Source: a virus (Duplodnaviria > Heunggongvirae > Uroviricota > Caudoviricetes). From it: a stretch of DNA of 8,644 nt. The translations under genes were made by a program, and so were the position numbers. Below, piece after piece: positions 1,833 through 8,644 of this stretch. Each line of letters begins with the position of its first letter. Position 1 is the stretch's first letter. The stretch lies in IMG/VR virus record IMGVR_UViG_2734482535_000008; one strand, given 5' to 3'. The notes below the pieces were generated by a model. It saw nothing but the letters and a program-made list of their open reading frames with translations. It ran no database searches and was not told the origin of the DNA.

Positions 1833-2615
1833 TTATGCTGCCCTTTTCATTGCGAATGGAACGCGAACAAACACGATCTCTTTATAGCAGCGGCAGTTTG
1901 GCAGCTCGCCCGCGTGGCCGGTCATGCCGTCCAAAGTTGGAGGTGAATCCCAGCGGACGAATTTACCTTTCATGTGATCGTGGGAATCTCGGACATCGCC
2001 ATCATCGGCTGTACGCCAAATATAACCATCCGAGCCAATAGCTATCGCTCGGGCCATATCCAGCGCGCCCGTTGCTCTTCCCAGTTCCGTTCGGGCAATC
2101 AGATCGGCCCTAGACTTAGCAACATCGCCGGTAGATGCAATCTCTTTAGCAAACTGCTCCGCCCGACCACCGGTGACAACAGCCTCTATCGCTTTGTTCT
2201 GGATGTCGTACACCCTGTCTGCGGCCTCGAGAGGCAGAGATTTGATGTACTTGACCTGTTCGGCGATGATGGATTGCATCACCTGGCCCACAGGAGCGCT
2301 TTCCACAAGATTGCGGAGCTCGCGACTGATGTTCTTGCTGTGTTGCCGCCAAACTTTCTCGTTCTGCCGGGTTAGGTCCGCAGTAAAGTTTTCCGCGACC
2401 TTTGTCGCCCAGGGGGTGATGATTTCACTGTAACGCTCCAGCGCCGCAATAATTTCCGTGATACTGTCATTTGAACCATCGTAGCGACCATTTACGATGT
2501 CTCCGACCGCCCTCGCTATCCTGCGTAGGCTGGTTCGATACCGGATTTCCGCCTGACGGCTCCTGCGGTTCGTCATCAGGTTCGCCGATGCCGGGCGGCG
2601 CTTCATCTTCGGCAT
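1833..2615 (-). CDS. Phage head morphogenesis protein (Mu gpF / SPP1 gp7 family minor head protein)
   Basis: 260-aa ORF located directly after the portal gene, as in the Mu gpF / SPP1 gp7 family; the sequence has the general look of that family, but I cannot name a specific conserved motif from memory. Start is ambiguous (ATG at 2615, 2606 or 2576); every candidate overlaps the portal 3' end by at least 110 nt. Confidence 0.78.
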   Translation of the reverse strand: MPKMKRRPASANLMTNRRSRQAEIRYRTSLRRIARAVGDIVNGRYDGSNDSITEIIAALERYSEIITPWATKVAENFTADLTRQNEKVWRQHSKNISRELRNLVESAPVGQVMQSIIAEQVKYIKSLPLEAADRVYDIQNKAIEAVVTGGRAEQFAKEIASTGDVAKSRADLIARTELGRATGALDMARAIAIGSDGYIWRTADDGDVRDSHDHMKGKFVRWDSPPTLDGMTGHAGELPNCRCYKEIVFVRVPFAMKRAA

Positions 2616-3549
2616 TCTCGATGTCCTCGTCGGTAATGGATGCCCCGATGCCGGTTACGTCAGAATTTTCTCGCAAATCAGTCATAGCGGCTTTCAGTGT
2701 CATCAGACCATCACCCAGCGCCGTACTGATTGCGTTGGTGGTGTTTAACGCCACCGTTGAGCGATCGACATCAGACATTTGCCAGAGCGGGTTAAACTCA
2801 AACGTGAAATCGTCCGGCAGCGGCTTGCCAAGTTCCGAACGATGCATGATGTCCAGTATCCGCCGCACCGGAAGACGTAAACGCCTCTCCTGCAACGAAC
2901 TGATGCGATCGTAATAGTTGGCAAGGTCTGCATCACCGGTAGAAAATCCTTTCGGGGACTGTCCGAACAACCGCACCAGTGGGATACCAACAGCGCCACT
3001 AATCTGTTCTACAAACTGCGAAAGGATGTCATCCAGACCACTGAAGCTGTACTGATGGGTTTCAAACTTATCCCGCGAGTCCATGAGCGTCATGCCTTCA
3101 TTACTCTGGAACTGTCGAATCAGGTCGATATTCTTCAGCAACGCTTCATACGCAGGACCACCAAGTGCGATAAGCTCGCGTAGCTTCTCCACGCTGTAGG
3201 TACGCAAATGCGCCTTGTAGACCAGCTGCGCCGCGCCGACAGTAGCGCTGTCGAACGCGGTAAGACGATCCCAGATACGCTCTACAACCGACATTCCCCA
3301 TTCGTTCTCGGTCATCTTCTGCTGAAATGGCAACGTGACGCCATCAAAGCGAATCAGGCGACTGTGATGAATGCGCCAGGCAGGAATTCCCGTTGCTGTG
3401 GTCACCACATCGTAAAACTCAGGTTTACCCAGGTCCGGCCCCATATCTTTAATGCGGCGGGTCAGTGCCGGGTCGACCATCCAGCGGTCGAGCGGGAGAA
3501 TCCCCTTAAACTTGCCCTTACCGATGGTTTCGGGTCGCAGCGGGGTCAT
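2467..3549 (-). CDS. Phage portal protein, intact C-terminal 360-codon ORF of an interrupted portal gene
   Basis: 360-aa ORF in the portal position immediately after terL. It is in the same reading frame as 383 nt of upstream coding-like sequence that reaches an ATG overlapping the terL stop (see the pseudogene feature). Acidic Pro/Glu/Asp-rich C-terminal tail. Confidence 0.7.
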   Translation of the reverse strand: MTPLRPETIGKGKFKGILPLDRWMVDPALTRRIKDMGPDLGKPEFYDVVTTATGIPAWRIHHSRLIRFDGVTLPFQQKMTENEWGMSVVERIWDRLTAFDSATVGAAQLVYKAHLRTYSVEKLRELIALGGPAYEALLKNIDLIRQFQSNEGMTLMDSRDKFETHQYSFSGLDDILSQFVEQISGAVGIPLVRLFGQSPKGFSTGDADLANYYDRISSLQERRLRLPVRRILDIMHRSELGKPLPDDFTFEFNPLWQMSDVDRSTVALNTTNAISTALGDGLMTLKAAMTDLRENSDVTGIGASITDEDIENAEDEAPPGIGEPDDEPQEPSGGNPVSNQPTQDSEGGRRHRKWSLRWFK

Positions 3550-3933
3550 TGGTGCCTACCCCTCAATCATGATGAAACCCACCGCGCCGCCGTAGAGGCG
3601 CGACCATTTCAGCACGTCATTCAGCGCATCCCAGATTTGCAACTCATCCAGTTGTGATTCGAGAATGCCACGATCTTTTGCATCAATTTCCGAAGTGATG
3701 CGAATGCCTTTGCGGGTCATATCATCCGGGATAGCATCGACTGCTTCGCCGATGATCTAGGATGAACGATAGGACCATTCCACCAGCATGCGGTTACGAC
3801 TGGTGAAATTAGCCCGGTAGGTGGATGCTGAGTGCTGGTTAGGTGTCTGCATCCCTACGCGGGCAATAAAATTCTCATAACCATCAGCTGTGGCCTGCAC
3901 AGTTCGCCGCAGGGCTTGTTTGTTTCGTGCCAT
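2467..3933 (-). pseudogene. Full-length portal reading frame (489 codons) interrupted by two in-frame TAG codons at 3759-3757 and 3558-3556
   Basis: My manual minus-strand translation from ATG 3933-3931 (overlapping the terL TGA as ATGA) gives MARNKQALRRTVQATADGYENFIARVGMQTPNQHSASTYRANFTSRNRMLVEWSYRSS*IIGEAVDAIPDDMTRKGIRITSEIDAKDRGILESQLDELQIWDALNDVLKWSRLYGGAVGFIMIEG*AP, then the MTPLRPETIGKG ORF, all in one frame. 489 codons is a normal portal size. Confidence 0.65.
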
Positions 3934-5363: not shown

Positions 5364-6051
5364 CAATACCTGCATCACGGCGAAGACGATCAGCCTCCAG
5401 AGACACCTTATCAGTGGCGGCCTTGCGGTAGGCTGTATCAGCAAATATTTTTCCTACCGTCGCAAGCGTGCCAACGATGGACTCAATACGAACTGTATTG
5501 CGCATCATTGCTTTCTCGGCGGCGCTGATATTTTCAATCAGCATCTTCCTTTCCTGGTCCCCATTAGCATCTTCCAGCGACACCAACCACCGACCAATAT
5601 TCTCTGCAGCGACAAGGTTGTTAGCACGAAGGCGAAATAATTCGTCCTCGAGCGTCAACGCTTTAGCGTCCTCTATCACCTCATCTTTGAGCAGAAGGCG
5701 ACGGGCATAACCACCGTGTTTTAATGCCTGCTGGTTACCGGGTTGGAATGGGTTAGTCGGGGGATCGGTACGCATTCCGCGTATCGGTTTCGTATCCGGT
5801 GTAGATTCTGTTTTTAGTTGCGTACTTTTTTGTGTAAGGCCAGTAATGGCAGGCTTTCTGCTGGTACGCACTTTCCTTTTTTGCGTACCATTTTTGCAAA
5901 CCTGCGTACCGCCACTGCGTGCCCAACCAAGCTTTTTGGCCCTCTTCCTGATAGCCCCTTCTGTAACGCCGTATTTCTCGCCTATATCACGGAGGCTAAG
6001 GACTCCGGCCCGGTATGCCGATTCGATGGCCTCCCAGTCCGGTTTTGCCAT
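5287..6051 (-). CDS. terS: Phage terminase small subunit with N-terminal helix-turn-helix DNA-binding domain
   Basis: N-terminus AIESAYRAGVLSLRDIGEKYGVTEGAIRKRAKKLGW is a typical terminase small-subunit HTH. It sits immediately upstream of and overlaps terL. AGGAAG Shine-Dalgarno 8 nt before the ATG at 6051. Confidence 0.82.
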   Translation of the reverse strand: MAKPDWEAIESAYRAGVLSLRDIGEKYGVTEGAIRKRAKKLGWARSGGTQVCKNGTQKRKVRTSRKPAITGLTQKSTQLKTESTPDTKPIRGMRTDPPTNPFQPGNQQALKHGGYARRLLLKDEVIEDAKALTLEDELFRLRANNLVAAENIGRWLVSLEDANGDQERKMLIENISAAEKAMMRNTVRIESIVGTLATVGKIFADTAYRKAATDKVSLEADRLRRDAGIDDGNGERDLNDFYSDIQTDAESGFT

Positions 6052-6248
6052 GATTATGCTTCCTGTGATTTACTGTTATCGCTGCCTGTCACAATAGGTT
6101 GCTTTAATTCTTCCTCATCACTCACTCCTGCGACGCTCCGTGGCAGGGCCCCCCACAGGAGTACCTTGTAAATGTAAGGTGTTTAAGCCTAAATTAAGTC
6201 GTATCACGGTTAAATAGCAAAGAAAAATTCACAGAAGGAAAGACATTG

Positions 6249-6758
6249 ATGGAGTGGATAAATGCTTTGATGAACTATTTTGTACTTCATCCATATCGCC
6301 TATGGGGGCTTCTTTTTATAATAGCGTTCACAAAATCCACTTTACTCATTTCGGCGATATTGCCACCAGCATCAATTATGATGGCCACTGTAATTACAGT
6401 CAGCAAGACGACTCTTTCACCATGGGAAGCTGGAATCACGGTCATGAGTGGCGCATGGTGCGGTACTATCGTTAATTACCATCTTGGTATAATAATTGGG
6501 CATATCCCTCAACTTGCATGTATAATATCAAGCCGTTCCAATACAATAGAACGGGTTCGCCTTCAGTTGCAAAATAACTCTGTGTCAATACTTTTCACTT
6601 CGCGCTTTATCGCCGTGCTGCGTTATATTGCTCCTTTGGTGGCAGGAATGTTGCAACTTCATCCAGTGAAAGTGTATACAGTGAGTCTGATTTCAGCTGC
6701 TAGCTGGTCAGCACTTTATGTTGGTAGTTTTAGCTTCGTGTTGCCTTTTTTTAGCTAA
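6249..6758 (+). CDS. AT-rich cargo gene: 169-aa multi-pass inner-membrane protein with DedA/VTT-domain-like motifs (YqaA-like small DedA)
   Basis: The only plus-strand gene, antisense to the phage late operon. AAGGAA Shine-Dalgarno 9 nt before ATG 6249 (the track's 6246 start is a TTG one codon earlier). Visibly lower GC than the flanking genes. About 5 hydrophobic segments. SRFIAVLRYIAPLVAGM resembles the DedA re-entrant motif G-R-F-x-x-x-R-x-x-x-P-x-x-AG, and ILPPASIMMATVITV resembles the N-terminal LPGDS region. Family assignment is my pattern match, not a search. Confidence 0.72.
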   Translation: MEWINALMNYFVLHPYRLWGLLFIIAFTKSTLLISAILPPASIMMATVITVSKTTLSPWEAGITVMSGAWCGTIVNYHLGIIIGHIPQLACIISSRSNTIERVRLQLQNNSVSILFTSRFIAVLRYIAPLVAGMLQLHPVKVYTVSLISAASWSALYVGSFSFVLPFFS

Positions 6759-6846: not shown

Positions 6847-7317
6847 CTACCCCCCAAGGCATTGGATCCTGATGTACTCCTGAAGCATTCTCAATGCTGT
6901 CTGGTCGCTGATGATTCCGTCCCGGATACCGAGAACGTTTCGTCCAGCAACTGGAGAGAGTTCGACGGTGGCATCATTGCCCATGCCGGAGGCGCTGGAG
7001 GTTTCGGCTGAGGATGGCACAGGGCATTTTCCTTTGACGAACACCCGACCACCATTATCAAGCTTGCGCCGAAGAGCATCATTTTCAGCTTTCGCATCAG
7101 CTAACTCCTTCGTGTATTTAGCATCGAGTGCATCAGCATCACGCTGGCGCTGCTGCATGTCAGTAATGGTTGCGTTCGCCAGCTTCAGTTCTCTTGCGTT
7201 TTTGTCGCGCTGCTCTTTGTAGGTAATGGCGTTATCACGGTAATGATTAACAGCCCATGACAGGCGGACGATGATGCAGATAACCAGAGCGGAGATAATC
7301 GCGGTGACTCTGCTCAT
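6847..7317 (-). CDS. Rz: Rz i-spanin (inner-membrane spanin subunit)
   Basis: [54 protein letters not shown] is closely similar to lambda/P21 Rz: an N-terminal transmembrane segment followed by a coiled-coil. ATG 7317-7315 overlaps the endolysin TGA (ATGA). The track ORF starts 4 codons earlier at 7329. Confidence 0.88.
6891..7097 (-). CDS. Rz1: Rz1 o-spanin (outer-membrane lipoprotein), embedded in the +1 frame of Rz
   Basis: [23 protein letters not shown] has a signal peptide and VVGC lipobox followed by a Pro-rich [11 protein letters not shown] segment, as in lambda Rz1. Strong AAGGAG Shine-Dalgarno 7 nt before ATG 7097. Lies wholly inside Rz. Confidence 0.85.
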
Positions 7318-7811
7318 TGCTGCCCCCACAAACAGACTTCACGCTCAATCTCACGACGGGTCATCAGCCCTTTCCATTGCTTACCGCCAGCATATGTCCA
7401 GCGACATAGCTGGTCACATGCGCCTTTGATATAGCCCTGGTTTATTTTGCGAAGAAGCGTCGATGTTCTGAAATTGCCAGCGCCCACGTTGTAAACGAAC
7501 GAGTAAAGAGCGCCGCGCGTTGTTTCCGGTATATCGACTTTGATGTACGGGTTAATTTGTCTGGCGACAGTGGCAAGGTCTTTATTCAGGAGGGCTTTGC
7601 ATTCTGCTTCGGTATACGTTTTACCGAGCATGATGTCTTTTCCGGTGTGTCCGTGACATACAGTCCATACACCAATGATATCTTTGTATGGTATGTAGCT
7701 GACACCTTCCAGACCATCGTTACCACCTGGGCCAGTGATTAACACAGATGCTATAGCAACAGCCCCACCACCAATAGCAGCTGCAACAGCCTTGCGTAAT
7801 GATGGCGACAT
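7314..7811 (-). CDS. R: SAR endolysin (phage 21 R-type lysozyme, T4-lysozyme / GH24 fold with N-terminal signal-anchor-release domain)
   Basis: Near-identical to my memory of phage 21 R: Gly/Ala-rich SAR segment [20 protein letters not shown] followed by [25 protein letters not shown] carrying the Glu/Asp/Thr catalytic positions. ATG overlaps the holin stop (TAATG). Confidence 0.92.
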
Positions 7812-8026
7812 TATTCACCTCTCGCAGCCTTACGCTTGTCTTCTCTTATTTTGAAATACAGATTTGTCAGATAAGTCAGAAGCCCCAGAAGCAGACTTCC
7901 CAGCACACCAATCGCAGCCCACTGTGATGGACTGACCTGATCCAACCACTGCAAAAACCAGTAGCCGGCACTGCCGGCGGAGGTGCCGTAGGCAATGCCT
8001 GTTGATATTTTTTCCATCTGATACAT
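7811..8026 (-). CDS. S: Class II pinholin (phage 21 S21-type) with dual-start motif M1-Y-Q-M4
   Basis: [71 protein letters not shown] closely matches S21 68/71: two transmembrane domains and a charged C-terminus. Two in-frame ATGs three codons apart, at 8026 and 8017. Confidence 0.92.
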
Positions 8027-8056
8027 ATCCCGCCCCCCGACAGACCTGTGCTATCG

Positions 8057-8093
8057 GAAAGAAAAAAGGCCATCAGCAAAACTCTGATGGCCT
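8057..8093 (-). terminator. Rho-independent terminator on the minus strand, about 30 nt upstream of the holin start (tR'-like late-leader terminator)
   Basis: Perfect 9-bp inverted repeat GGCCATCAG (8068-8076) / CTGATGGCC (8084-8092) with a 7-nt loop. On the minus strand it is followed by TTTTTTCTTTC (complement of 8067-8057). Confidence 0.7.
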
Positions 8094-8137
8094 GAATCAC
8101 CTTTACCAATATTGTATGAAAAAACACGCACGACTAA

Positions 8138-8166
8138 TTGACAATAATTTTCATTTCCATTAAAAA
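8138..8166 (+). promoter_or_regulatory. Candidate sigma70 promoter on the plus strand (TTGACA-N17-TAAAAA)
   Basis: Consensus -35 TTGACA at 8138-8143, 17-bp AT-rich spacer, then TAAAAA (4/6 match to TATAAT). Sequence-only prediction. Confidence 0.25.
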
Positions 8167-8201
8167 AGATCGCGTAGCATTCTTAATTCATGAGGAACTT
8201 T

Positions 8202-8268
8202 ACCCGCCAGCAATCTGAGTAGCGAAAGCTGTTCATCCCCAATGTTTTTGCTGGCGGGTCCTTTTTTC
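8202..8268 (+). terminator. Long-stem hairpin plus T-tract, terminator-like on the plus strand (possible 3' end of a small antisense RNA)
   Basis: Perfect 12-bp inverted repeat ACCCGCCAGCAA (8202-8213) / TTGCTGGCGGGT (8248-8259) around a 34-nt spacer, followed by CCTTTTTTC (T-run 8262-8267). The minus-strand orientation has no U-tract after the stem. Confidence 0.4.
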
Positions 8269-8570
8269 TACGGTCCTCCTCCCCGGAGGGGGGCATTTCA
8301 TTATTTTTCTAATCGTTACTGGTGAGAAGGCGGAAGAAAAAGCCAGTTCTTCGCCCCTAAATAACAGCATGATTCCAGTCCATGCAAAATCTGATTTCCA
8401 GCTCACACATACCGAGCGCTGTACAAAAAACCGCCAGCCAAGGCAGTTAAGAGTGTGTTCCCGGGGTTTGCTTAGAATATTTTGTAAGTTGTCCGAAGAG
8501 ATATTTACAACACCAGAATGATGCATTATCAGTCCCCTGCCAGAGGTTCACTACGTAACCTGACCGACAA

Positions 8571-8644
8571 TGAAGTGGCACACTGAATTTGGCCACCTGA
8601 ACAGAGGTGATATGCTCACCTCAGAACAACACAGGTGCTCCAAT
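8571..8644 (+). mobile_element. IS911 (IS3 family) left end, 74 bp; element continues beyond the window end, with the orfA ATG beginning at 8642
   Basis: 8571-8644 reads TGAAGTGGCACACTGAATTTGGCCACCTGAACAGAGGTGATATGCTCACCTCAGAACAACACAGGTGCTCCAAT, which I recognise as the IS911 left inverted repeat and orfA leader. It has the IS3-family terminal TGA. Recognised from memory. Confidence 0.82.

Follow-up and report, generated by a model that had tools for sequence, protein, structure and literature searches.

In lambdoid phages the antitermination protein Q acts only on RNA polymerase loaded at its cognate late promoter, pR′, and polymerase modified in this way is expected to read through any terminator of the late operon; in phage lambda the terminator tR′ lies 100–200 nucleotides (nt) from pR′ (lambda coordinates). 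The present study concerns a leader of this kind in a Caudoviricetes prophage, namely positions 8027–8570 (544 nt) of an 8,644-nt stretch of DNA, hereafter the window, directly upstream of a holin gene on the minus strand. In PMC7547250 tR′ is placed next to Q, where it ends a short constitutive transcript, and the passage of PMC4104026 that cites Juhala et al. 2000 defines a moron as a promoter, a gene and a terminator set between phage genes; small RNA (sRNA) genes in the moron site downstream of pR′ were noted by Tree et al. 2014 (PMC4104026). PasA and PasC are Hfq-dependent sRNAs of enteropathogenic Escherichia coli (EPEC) prophages that have been described as "directly adjacent" to the holin/lysozyme operon (bioRxiv 10.64898/2026.05.13.724894) and validated by Northern blot and by RNA interaction by ligation and sequencing (RIL-seq; PMC8550237), and whose published coordinates in NC_011601 are 743499–743415 and 1290909–1290832, respectively, both in antisense orientation. 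In the element Tn916, according to PMC11658703, an insulator terminator shields harmful element genes against transcription from outside and is crossed only when the element's own antitermination operates.

We consider it fairly probable that 8027–8570 is the holin-proximal end of a long untranslated lambdoid late leader, severed by the insertion sequence (IS) IS911, which carries an insulating terminator and an sRNA unit and belongs to a silent, decaying prophage. The uninterrupted order would be Q, a pR′-like promoter with a tR′-like terminator, morons, four tRNA genes, the leader and then the holin. At 8057–8093, a terminator would act as an insulator, stopping unmodified polymerase that arrives from tRNA or moron promoters, or by read-through, before it enters the lysis genes; only Q-modified, terminator-resistant polymerase from pR′ would cross it to those genes. 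A compact unit of the small-RNA type would lie on the other strand, made up of TTGACA-17-TAAAAA, a stem-loop RNA of ~95 nt and a U-tract. A rearrangement associated with IS911 would have taken pR′ and Q from the upstream side of this element, and with the portal inactivated too, the late genes would be part of a silent and decaying prophage. The architecture is ordinary, and the candidate sRNA unit offers one modest new lead.

A terminator in front of the holin

The preliminary description, made from the letters of the window, had placed a strong minus-strand terminator about 30 nt before the holin, and this proved well founded. The hairpin, AGGCCATCAG-agttttg-CTGATGGCCT at 8093..8067 of the minus strand, comprises 10 pairs, of which 6 are G-C, and the tail TTTTTCTTTC comes next, at 8066..8057, with 30 nt between the T-tract and the holin ATG at 8026. 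As RNA, 8057–8093 folds at −24.5 kcal/mol (z = −4.6), and none of 200 shuffles, the comparison used for each fold z-score reported here, was as good. A terminator scan over 7700–8644, with the chance level taken from shuffled sequence, found 7 terminator-like sites against 0.7 ± 0.8 in the shuffles. With a G+C-rich hairpin and a U-tract that both exceed chance, 8057–8093 is predicted to be an intrinsic terminator, and a convincing one, in the path of late transcription to the holin.

Terminators in this position are not peculiar to the window. We took a census of the 150 nt before the holin start at 83 loci, comprising 80 viral contigs found with the holin protein together with E. coli loci, which represent 14 upstream sequence classes. 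A late-strand hairpin with a T-run lies 37–108 nt before the holin ATG in 11 of the 14 classes, where 1.2 would be expected from shuffles, and the stems of these 11 classes are unrelated in sequence; sites on the other strand were found in 2 of the 14. On inspection, two of the three negative classes do have a hairpin and T-run that the scan rule had missed. The essD gene of the K-12 prophage DLP12 has a terminator ~115 nt upstream as well, and a pre-holin terminator is also present in the EPEC prophages PP2 and PP4. The hairpin of the window is identical wherever a holin follows, in both window-type and IHE3034-type relatives, and mismatches that weaken it occur only where no holin is left, in the remnants found in CFT073 and on a ColV-type plasmid, in which homology ends right after the terminator T-tract. 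Because the holin-nearest terminator is common to lineages with different morons or with none, it behaves as part of the front end of the lysis cassette. A terminator within ~110 nt of the holin start is a recurrent, sequence-independent feature of phage-21-type lysis cassettes, and this recurrence makes the insulator idea, in which lysis depends strictly on antitermination, directly testable. Our literature searches returned no specific description of a terminator just upstream of a holin gene, nor of a Shigella sRNA located there.

The hairpin may also be read as mainly the 3′ end of an Hfq-binding, trans-acting sRNA of the late strand that is cut from, or ends, leader transcripts made in lysogens. 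We think this unlikely, even though a hairpin and U-tract that come after an A/U-rich single-stranded stretch resemble an Hfq-binding module, PasD1 and PasD2 are late-strand sRNAs from the same inter-gene space, and RIL-seq in EPEC recorded late-strand RNA between pasA and the holin. Upstream of the hairpin, however, there is no conserved late-strand promoter, and the pre-holin hairpins and the DNA that precedes them are unrelated across the census classes, which fits a generic terminator better. The roles of sRNA 3′ end and safety terminator do not exclude each other.

A candidate small-RNA unit on the opposite strand

A second element of the leader, which the preliminary description missed, lies on the plus strand at 8138–8267, 112–241 nt upstream of the holin start. 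It consists of a promoter-like site and a predicted RNA (coordinates in Table 1). The −35 hexamer, a perfect TTGACA, is invariant in 13 of 13 distinct variants of the surrounding module and in the PasA, PasC and PP4 loci. The predicted RNA starts with ~30 single-stranded nt, followed by a 12-bp stem (8202–8213 with 8248–8259) that encloses a GAAA-capped inner hairpin, and then by CCTTTTTT and a T-run at 8262–8267. Folded as 8173–8270, it reaches −31.6 kcal/mol (z = −4.2; 0 of 200 shuffles as good). Six variants from four lineages keep the consensus structure, through invariance, and the two G.U pairs of the inner hairpin and the U-tract after the stem exist on the plus strand only. From TTGACA to the end of the terminator stem, the distance is 111–121 nt in the window, the IHE3034-type copy, PasA and the PP4 copy. 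The second plus-strand hairpin, at 8273–8309, is possibly a back-up terminator for the unit; it lies outside the consensus structure and is degraded on the plus strand in the IHE3034-type variant.

Given a build and placement like those of PasA and PasC, the plus-strand unit probably makes a trans-acting or cis-antisense RNA in lysogens. We more tentatively suggest, as a possibility that we would not yet call probable, that this RNA is an unnamed Hfq-binding sRNA, unrelated in sequence to PasA and PasC, that occupies the same slot before the lysis genes. Of 5,426 complete E. coli genomes, 1,428 have the module that holds the unit and the terminator (~8407–8058), at ~83–88% identity. Its copies are both chromosomal and plasmid-borne; the plasmids number more than 600, and on many of these it adjoins iss and Rz/Rz1 remnants. 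An unannotated unit of the sRNA type would therefore be carried by some 1,400 of these genomes, virulence plasmids included.

Some further observations concern the same module. It is found without a holin in the CFT073 island near the pap genes (locus L004, 3440815–3440953) and on the ColV-type plasmid pFHI_NMBU_03_1 (locus L005). In IHE3034 (locus L002), which belongs to a tRNA-less lineage, an antisense hairpin with a T-run (GCCCG..CGGGC, TTTTTT) stands ~487 nt before the holin start and could represent a further antisense unit. Descent from the nmpC/lc porin promoter region of DLP12 was considered and ruled out, as the K-12 sequence upstream of essD is unrelated.

Several points weigh against the account that we favour. 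The insulator role of 8057–8093, which we regard as most likely, is drawn from position and recurrence, and the loss of pR′ and Q past IS911 in the window's own genome, which we likewise regard as most likely, is drawn from the three other strains described below. The antisense −10 element, TAAAAA, is weak by its sequence, with no T at position 6, and the antisense promoter therefore went unreported in our consensus scan. Compensatory base changes were sought in the six variants that keep the structure, and none was found. One stem change, in the ColV-type plasmid copy, fits pairing on the late strand better (U.G there against A.C on the plus strand), and the late strand also gives the better pairing for the changes that the IHE3034-type copy has in its second hairpin (8273–8294). 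As to which strand has been selected for RNA structure, the variants give mixed evidence.

These last two changes are what favours a different explanation, in which the 12-bp stem (8202–8259) works in the late-strand leader RNA, for instance in processing or stability, and the plus-strand "sRNA gene" is its mirror image; in the IHE3034-type copy, the second hairpin pairs only on the late strand, through G.U. We judge this quite improbable. The stem is followed by a U-tract on the plus strand only, and only there do the G.U pairs of the inner hairpin form; the ColV-type plasmid copy, moreover, is a decayed remnant. The TTGACA-17-N6 geometry also matches mapped transcript starts, as the 5′ ends of PasA and PasC lie exactly 7 nt past TTGACA-17-TCAGAA, which aligns with the element of the window.

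The uninterrupted leader and the IS911 junction

The full leader of 544 nt occurs at ≥99% identity in nine complete E. coli genomes and in loci L006–L015, whose genomes are rich in ISs and probably Shigella, while at least the ~400 nt of it nearest the holin are present in the viral contigs L019, L020, L072 and L078. IS911 is absent at this position from all of these copies. Of the leader, deposited phage genomes contain no more than the 50 nt closest to the holin. In intact copies the leader runs 136 nt farther upstream of the IS911 site, to four tRNA genes, which in loci L001 and L007 are Ile/Met(CAU), Arg(UCU), Thr(UGU) and Gly(UCC). The tRNA that heads the cluster (L001 5555–5630, L007 7010–7086), with its CAU anticodon, is called Met by ARAGORN and Ile by RefSeq, the latter call implying a lysidine-modified type. 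Upstream of the tRNAs are morons, a DNA methyltransferase gene in L001 and an ORF6N-domain gene in L007, and upstream of the morons is the Q gene (PF06530), whose end lies 3.4 kb from the holin in L001 and 2.2 kb from it in L007. Directly after Q, L007 has a promoter-like TTGACC-18-TATATT (5781–5810) and an intrinsic terminator (5872–5888), and another promoter-like site lies ahead of the tRNAs at 6971–7000. From its sequence and its place next to Q, we identify the pair at 5781–5888 as the equivalent of pR′ and tR′. In intact copies, the transcript of the tRNA cluster may end at the equivalent of the weak late-strand hairpin found at 8423–8448 of the window (−10.7 kcal/mol, z = −2.4).

One observation bears on the terminators of such leaders. 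The terminator before essD in DLP12 (locus L107, ~3755–3790), AAACCCGC..GCGGGTTT followed by a T-run, differs little in sequence from the one that follows the ORF6N-domain moron of L007 (6896–6917). Judging from this likeness, terminator cassettes appear to be exchanged between leaders.

The uninterrupted copies bear directly on the proposal of the preliminary description that the hairpin before the holin is the counterpart of tR′. In that reading the leader would be a 6S-like region of a phage with no Q gene, whose late genes need Q from elsewhere; the terminator is indeed real and on the path to the holin, and Q is found neither in the window nor beyond IS911 in genomes that share its junction. 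We nevertheless find it very unlikely. In every uninterrupted copy a pR′-like promoter and its own terminator come right after Q, whereas the hairpin, which corresponds to L007 7934–7960, lies ~2.1 kb downstream of that pair, and tR′ would be expected within 100–200 nt of pR′ and next to Q. As the place of tR′ is taken in intact relatives, the hairpin of the window is not tR′; its position makes it a second, holin-proximal terminator where a long, moron-bearing leader ends. A scan of 8027–8570, combined with the alignment of relatives, found no conserved late-strand promoter within the 544 nt. Two late-strand candidates, TTCTCA-17-AATAAT at 8328–8300 and TACAAT at 8116–8111, 21 nt from TTGTCA at 8143–8138, were rejected, as relatives do not keep them. 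A Q homolog acting in trans, which had been put forward as a possible rescue, would be of no use to a leader that has lost pR′, since Q needs pR′ and its Q-loading site in cis.

The Q gene had also been described as missing. That holds for the window and for the 4 kb past the junction in the three genomes described below; a leader with morons and tRNAs between Q and the holin is, however, the normal layout in relatives, so that a Q gene 2.2–3.4 kb from the holin, and not adjacent to it, is nothing unusual. The window itself stops inside IS911, and a truncated sequence would show the same lack of Q.

At its upstream end the leader gives way to an IS3-family element. Positions 8571–8644 are 100% identical to IS911 copies annotated in the Shigella phages Sf6 and SfII, so that the upper limit of the leader at 8570 is set by the left end of IS911, and the window includes only the first 74 nt of the element. 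When the exact IS911/leader junction was searched for, contigs that represent one genome per species gave 0 matches and complete E. coli genomes gave no record spanning it; it was then found by way of the neighbouring VTT-domain gene. Three complete genomes (L100, L105 and L106) have the exact junction of the window and match it end to end but for two extra ISs; window positions 8033–8644 correspond to L105 13578–14189. In all three the IS911 end sequence runs straight into an HTH_Tnp_1/rve transposase, and at the L105 junction a 389-aa HTH_Tnp_1/rve product and a matching right end delimit an element at 14116–15364 (1249 nt). An identical end together with an orfA/orfB transposase assigns the element to IS911. 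As for the extra insertions, one is an IS3-family element inside the holin (~7830 of the window) and the other an IS110-family element between the terminator and the holin ATG (~8033–8036 of the window); the window lacks both and thus derives from another strain, less decayed than these.

In L105 and L106 the IS911 copy is complete, with flanks CAA|IS|GGT and no 3-bp target duplication. On its far side are three genes inverted relative to the late genes: a DUF1391 gene, one for a cI-like repressor and a cro-like one. In the 4 kb past the junction, none of L100, L105 and L106 has a tRNA or Q gene. The lack of a target duplication and the inverted immunity region point to an IS911-mediated rearrangement and not a simple insertion, and as judged from these assemblies the late region is physically cut off from any Q or pR′ in the three genomes that share the junction. 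A simple insertion would instead show the far side of IS911 starting ...TGCACCATT with a 3-bp duplication; in that case the leader and insulator reading would be kept and the claim of disconnection from Q would be lost.

Compared with the intact portal of L099 (488 aa), the portal gene (2470–3933, minus strand) is interrupted by two in-frame stops, one near 3558 (CAG to TAG) and the other near 3758 (TGG to TAG), and the L105 portal is called with the same split, as products of 360 aa and 54 aa. With two nonsense mutations in its portal, the prophage is defective whatever the state of Q. The expectation that the lysis and head genes are transcriptionally silent is therefore plausible, with Q and pR′ disconnected and the portal interrupted, and the cause would be prophage decay: the late lysis and head genes are probably silent in this element for that reason. 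The missing Q would then be explained by the IS911 junction at the window edge and by decay, and not by a late operon independent of Q.

Features of the leader and comparison with known systems

The remaining possibility, that 8027–8570 codes for protein through the 97-aa open reading frame (ORF) at 8233–8526 or another small ORF, can be put close to nil: the 97-aa ORF is open in near-identical copies and annotated "hypothetical protein" in some records, and AR_0086 has a separate, annotated 63-aa ORF, but neither has family matches, the first has no homologues beyond near-identical DNA and is broken in 87%-identical relatives, and the second is closed in the window. The 97-aa ORF had no meaningful match in Pfam, PHROG or NCBIfam, nor did the two plus-strand ORFs or the ORF annotated in AR_0086. 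Against 5.8 billion proteins, the 97-aa ORF retrieved six entries, of which four are near-identical "hypothetical" proteins, all named Shigella flexneri, and the other two are 70-aa fragments (71% identity over 46% of the query). Its first 40 codons are in lineage-specific DNA known only from near-identical copies, and its frame is broken in relatives by indels of 2, 3 and 1 nt (alignment A1). The preliminary description had found no convincing ORF on the late strand, and family, protein and alignment searches agree with it, detecting no conserved protein-coding gene in 8100–8570; by these comparisons, 8027–8570 is without a conserved gene and its late strand is non-coding.

Table 1 Features of the leader and the adjoining lysis genes, in window coordinates
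Feature	Position	Strand	Basis or remarks
Left end of IS911 (IS3 family): terminal inverted repeat and leader up to the orfA start	8571–8644	plus	74/74 nt identity; lies before the leader in the late-gene order (8644–8571)
Leader, whole	8027–8570	minus	read from 8570 to 8027, between IS911 end and holin
Leader, distal part, specific to the tRNA-bearing lineage	8408–8570	minus	≥99% copies only in nine complete E. coli genomes and loci L006–L015
Weak terminator-like hairpin, late strand	8423–8448	minus	7 pairs, 4 G-C, then TTTTGTACAG
97-aa ORF, not regarded as a gene	8233–8526	minus	no family; frame broken in relatives
Second hairpin with T-rich tail	8273–8309	plus	9 pairs, 6 G-C, then ATTTCATTAT
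Predicted antisense small RNA, ~95 nt	8173–8267	plus	RNA fold, consensus structure
Promoter-like site pointing away from the holin	8138–8166	plus	read from sequence; −35 TTGACA 8138–8143, 17-nt spacer, −10 TAAAAA 8161–8166
Strong intrinsic terminator, late strand (predicted)	8057–8093	minus	hairpin scan and RNA fold
Spacer, 30 nt, with G-rich ribosome-binding region of the holin	8027–8056	minus	sequence
Phage-21-type class II holin, 71 aa	7811–8026	minus	PF04971, E 1.5e-35; read from 8026 to 7811
Lysozyme	7314–7811		PF00959, E 7.6e-44; downstream of holin
Rz	6847–7329		PF03245, E 2.2e-29; downstream of lysozyme

The lysis cassette opens with the holin, a dual-start protein with the N-terminus MYQM, and the spacer in front of it is too short for a promoter. 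Past Rz, the order is an oppositely oriented VTT/DedA-family gene, the terminase subunits, the portal gene and the head genes. The VTT/DedA-family gene (6246–6758, plus strand; PF09335, E 9e-14), which encodes a membrane protein and sits between Rz and the small terminase gene in an island of 40–42% G+C, looks like a moron. A tRNA scan of the window found no tRNA genes, and a cmscan search of the whole window on both strands against Rfam, including AgvB, AsxR, STnc100, Esr41 and all other families, gave no match at E ≤ 1. Folded as one RNA, the 544 nt show nothing unusual (z = −0.8).

Compared with the described systems, the terminator at 8057–8093 resembles lambda tR′/6S RNA and the StxS of Shiga toxin (Stx) phages in being a late-leader terminator before the lysis genes that Q-modified polymerase would cross. 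It differs from tR′ in lying ~2.1 kb downstream of the pR′-like pair (as measured in L007) and 30 nt from the holin. Like a moron, the tRNA cluster sits between Q and the lysis genes with a promoter-like site of its own and terminators downstream of it; the holin-nearest terminator, unlike a part of one moron, is shared by lineages whose upstream morons differ or are lacking. With the insulator of Tn916 it would have the same proposed logic in another element and under another antitermination system, and the comparison is one of analogy alone.

For the antisense unit, the convergent sRNA pairs and the anti-sRNAs AgvB and AsxR of the moron site (PMC4104026) offer one comparison: they likewise lie in the Q-to-S leader, some of them antisense to late transcription, and at 51–60 nt they are shorter than the ~95 nt predicted here. 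PasA and PasC (EcOnc51/52; present in EPEC and enterohaemorrhagic E. coli) are closer in arrangement. Homology to them was nonetheless rejected: blastn-short found similarity at chance level only, the seed GCCAGCACCU included, nhmmer found none at E ≤ 10, and a covariance model of the window-type unit (R1), which scores 159–174 bits on its own relatives, gave no match at E ≤ 10 in L016, L017 or L018 (PasA, PasC and the PP4 copy). On these comparisons, membership in the PasA/PasC family is not supported. Only GCCAGCA..CU of the 5′ stem arm is common to the two, and the upstream neighbour is a tRNA cluster in the case of the window unit and a sialate esterase gene in that of PasA/PasC. What they share is the slot, between the last moron and the holin/lysozyme operon (as seen for PasA in L016 and the PP4 copy in L018), the antisense orientation, the −35 TTGACA with its 17-nt spacer, the promoter–terminator distance of 111–121 nt, and a terminator stem with GCCAGC followed by a U-tract; this promoter and stem geometry is present and conserved in the window unit, whose 5′ end is a predicted one. 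If the unit does make such an sRNA, the pre-holin slot would be a general launch pad in which unrelated sRNA genes have been installed repeatedly beside a holin-proximal safety terminator.

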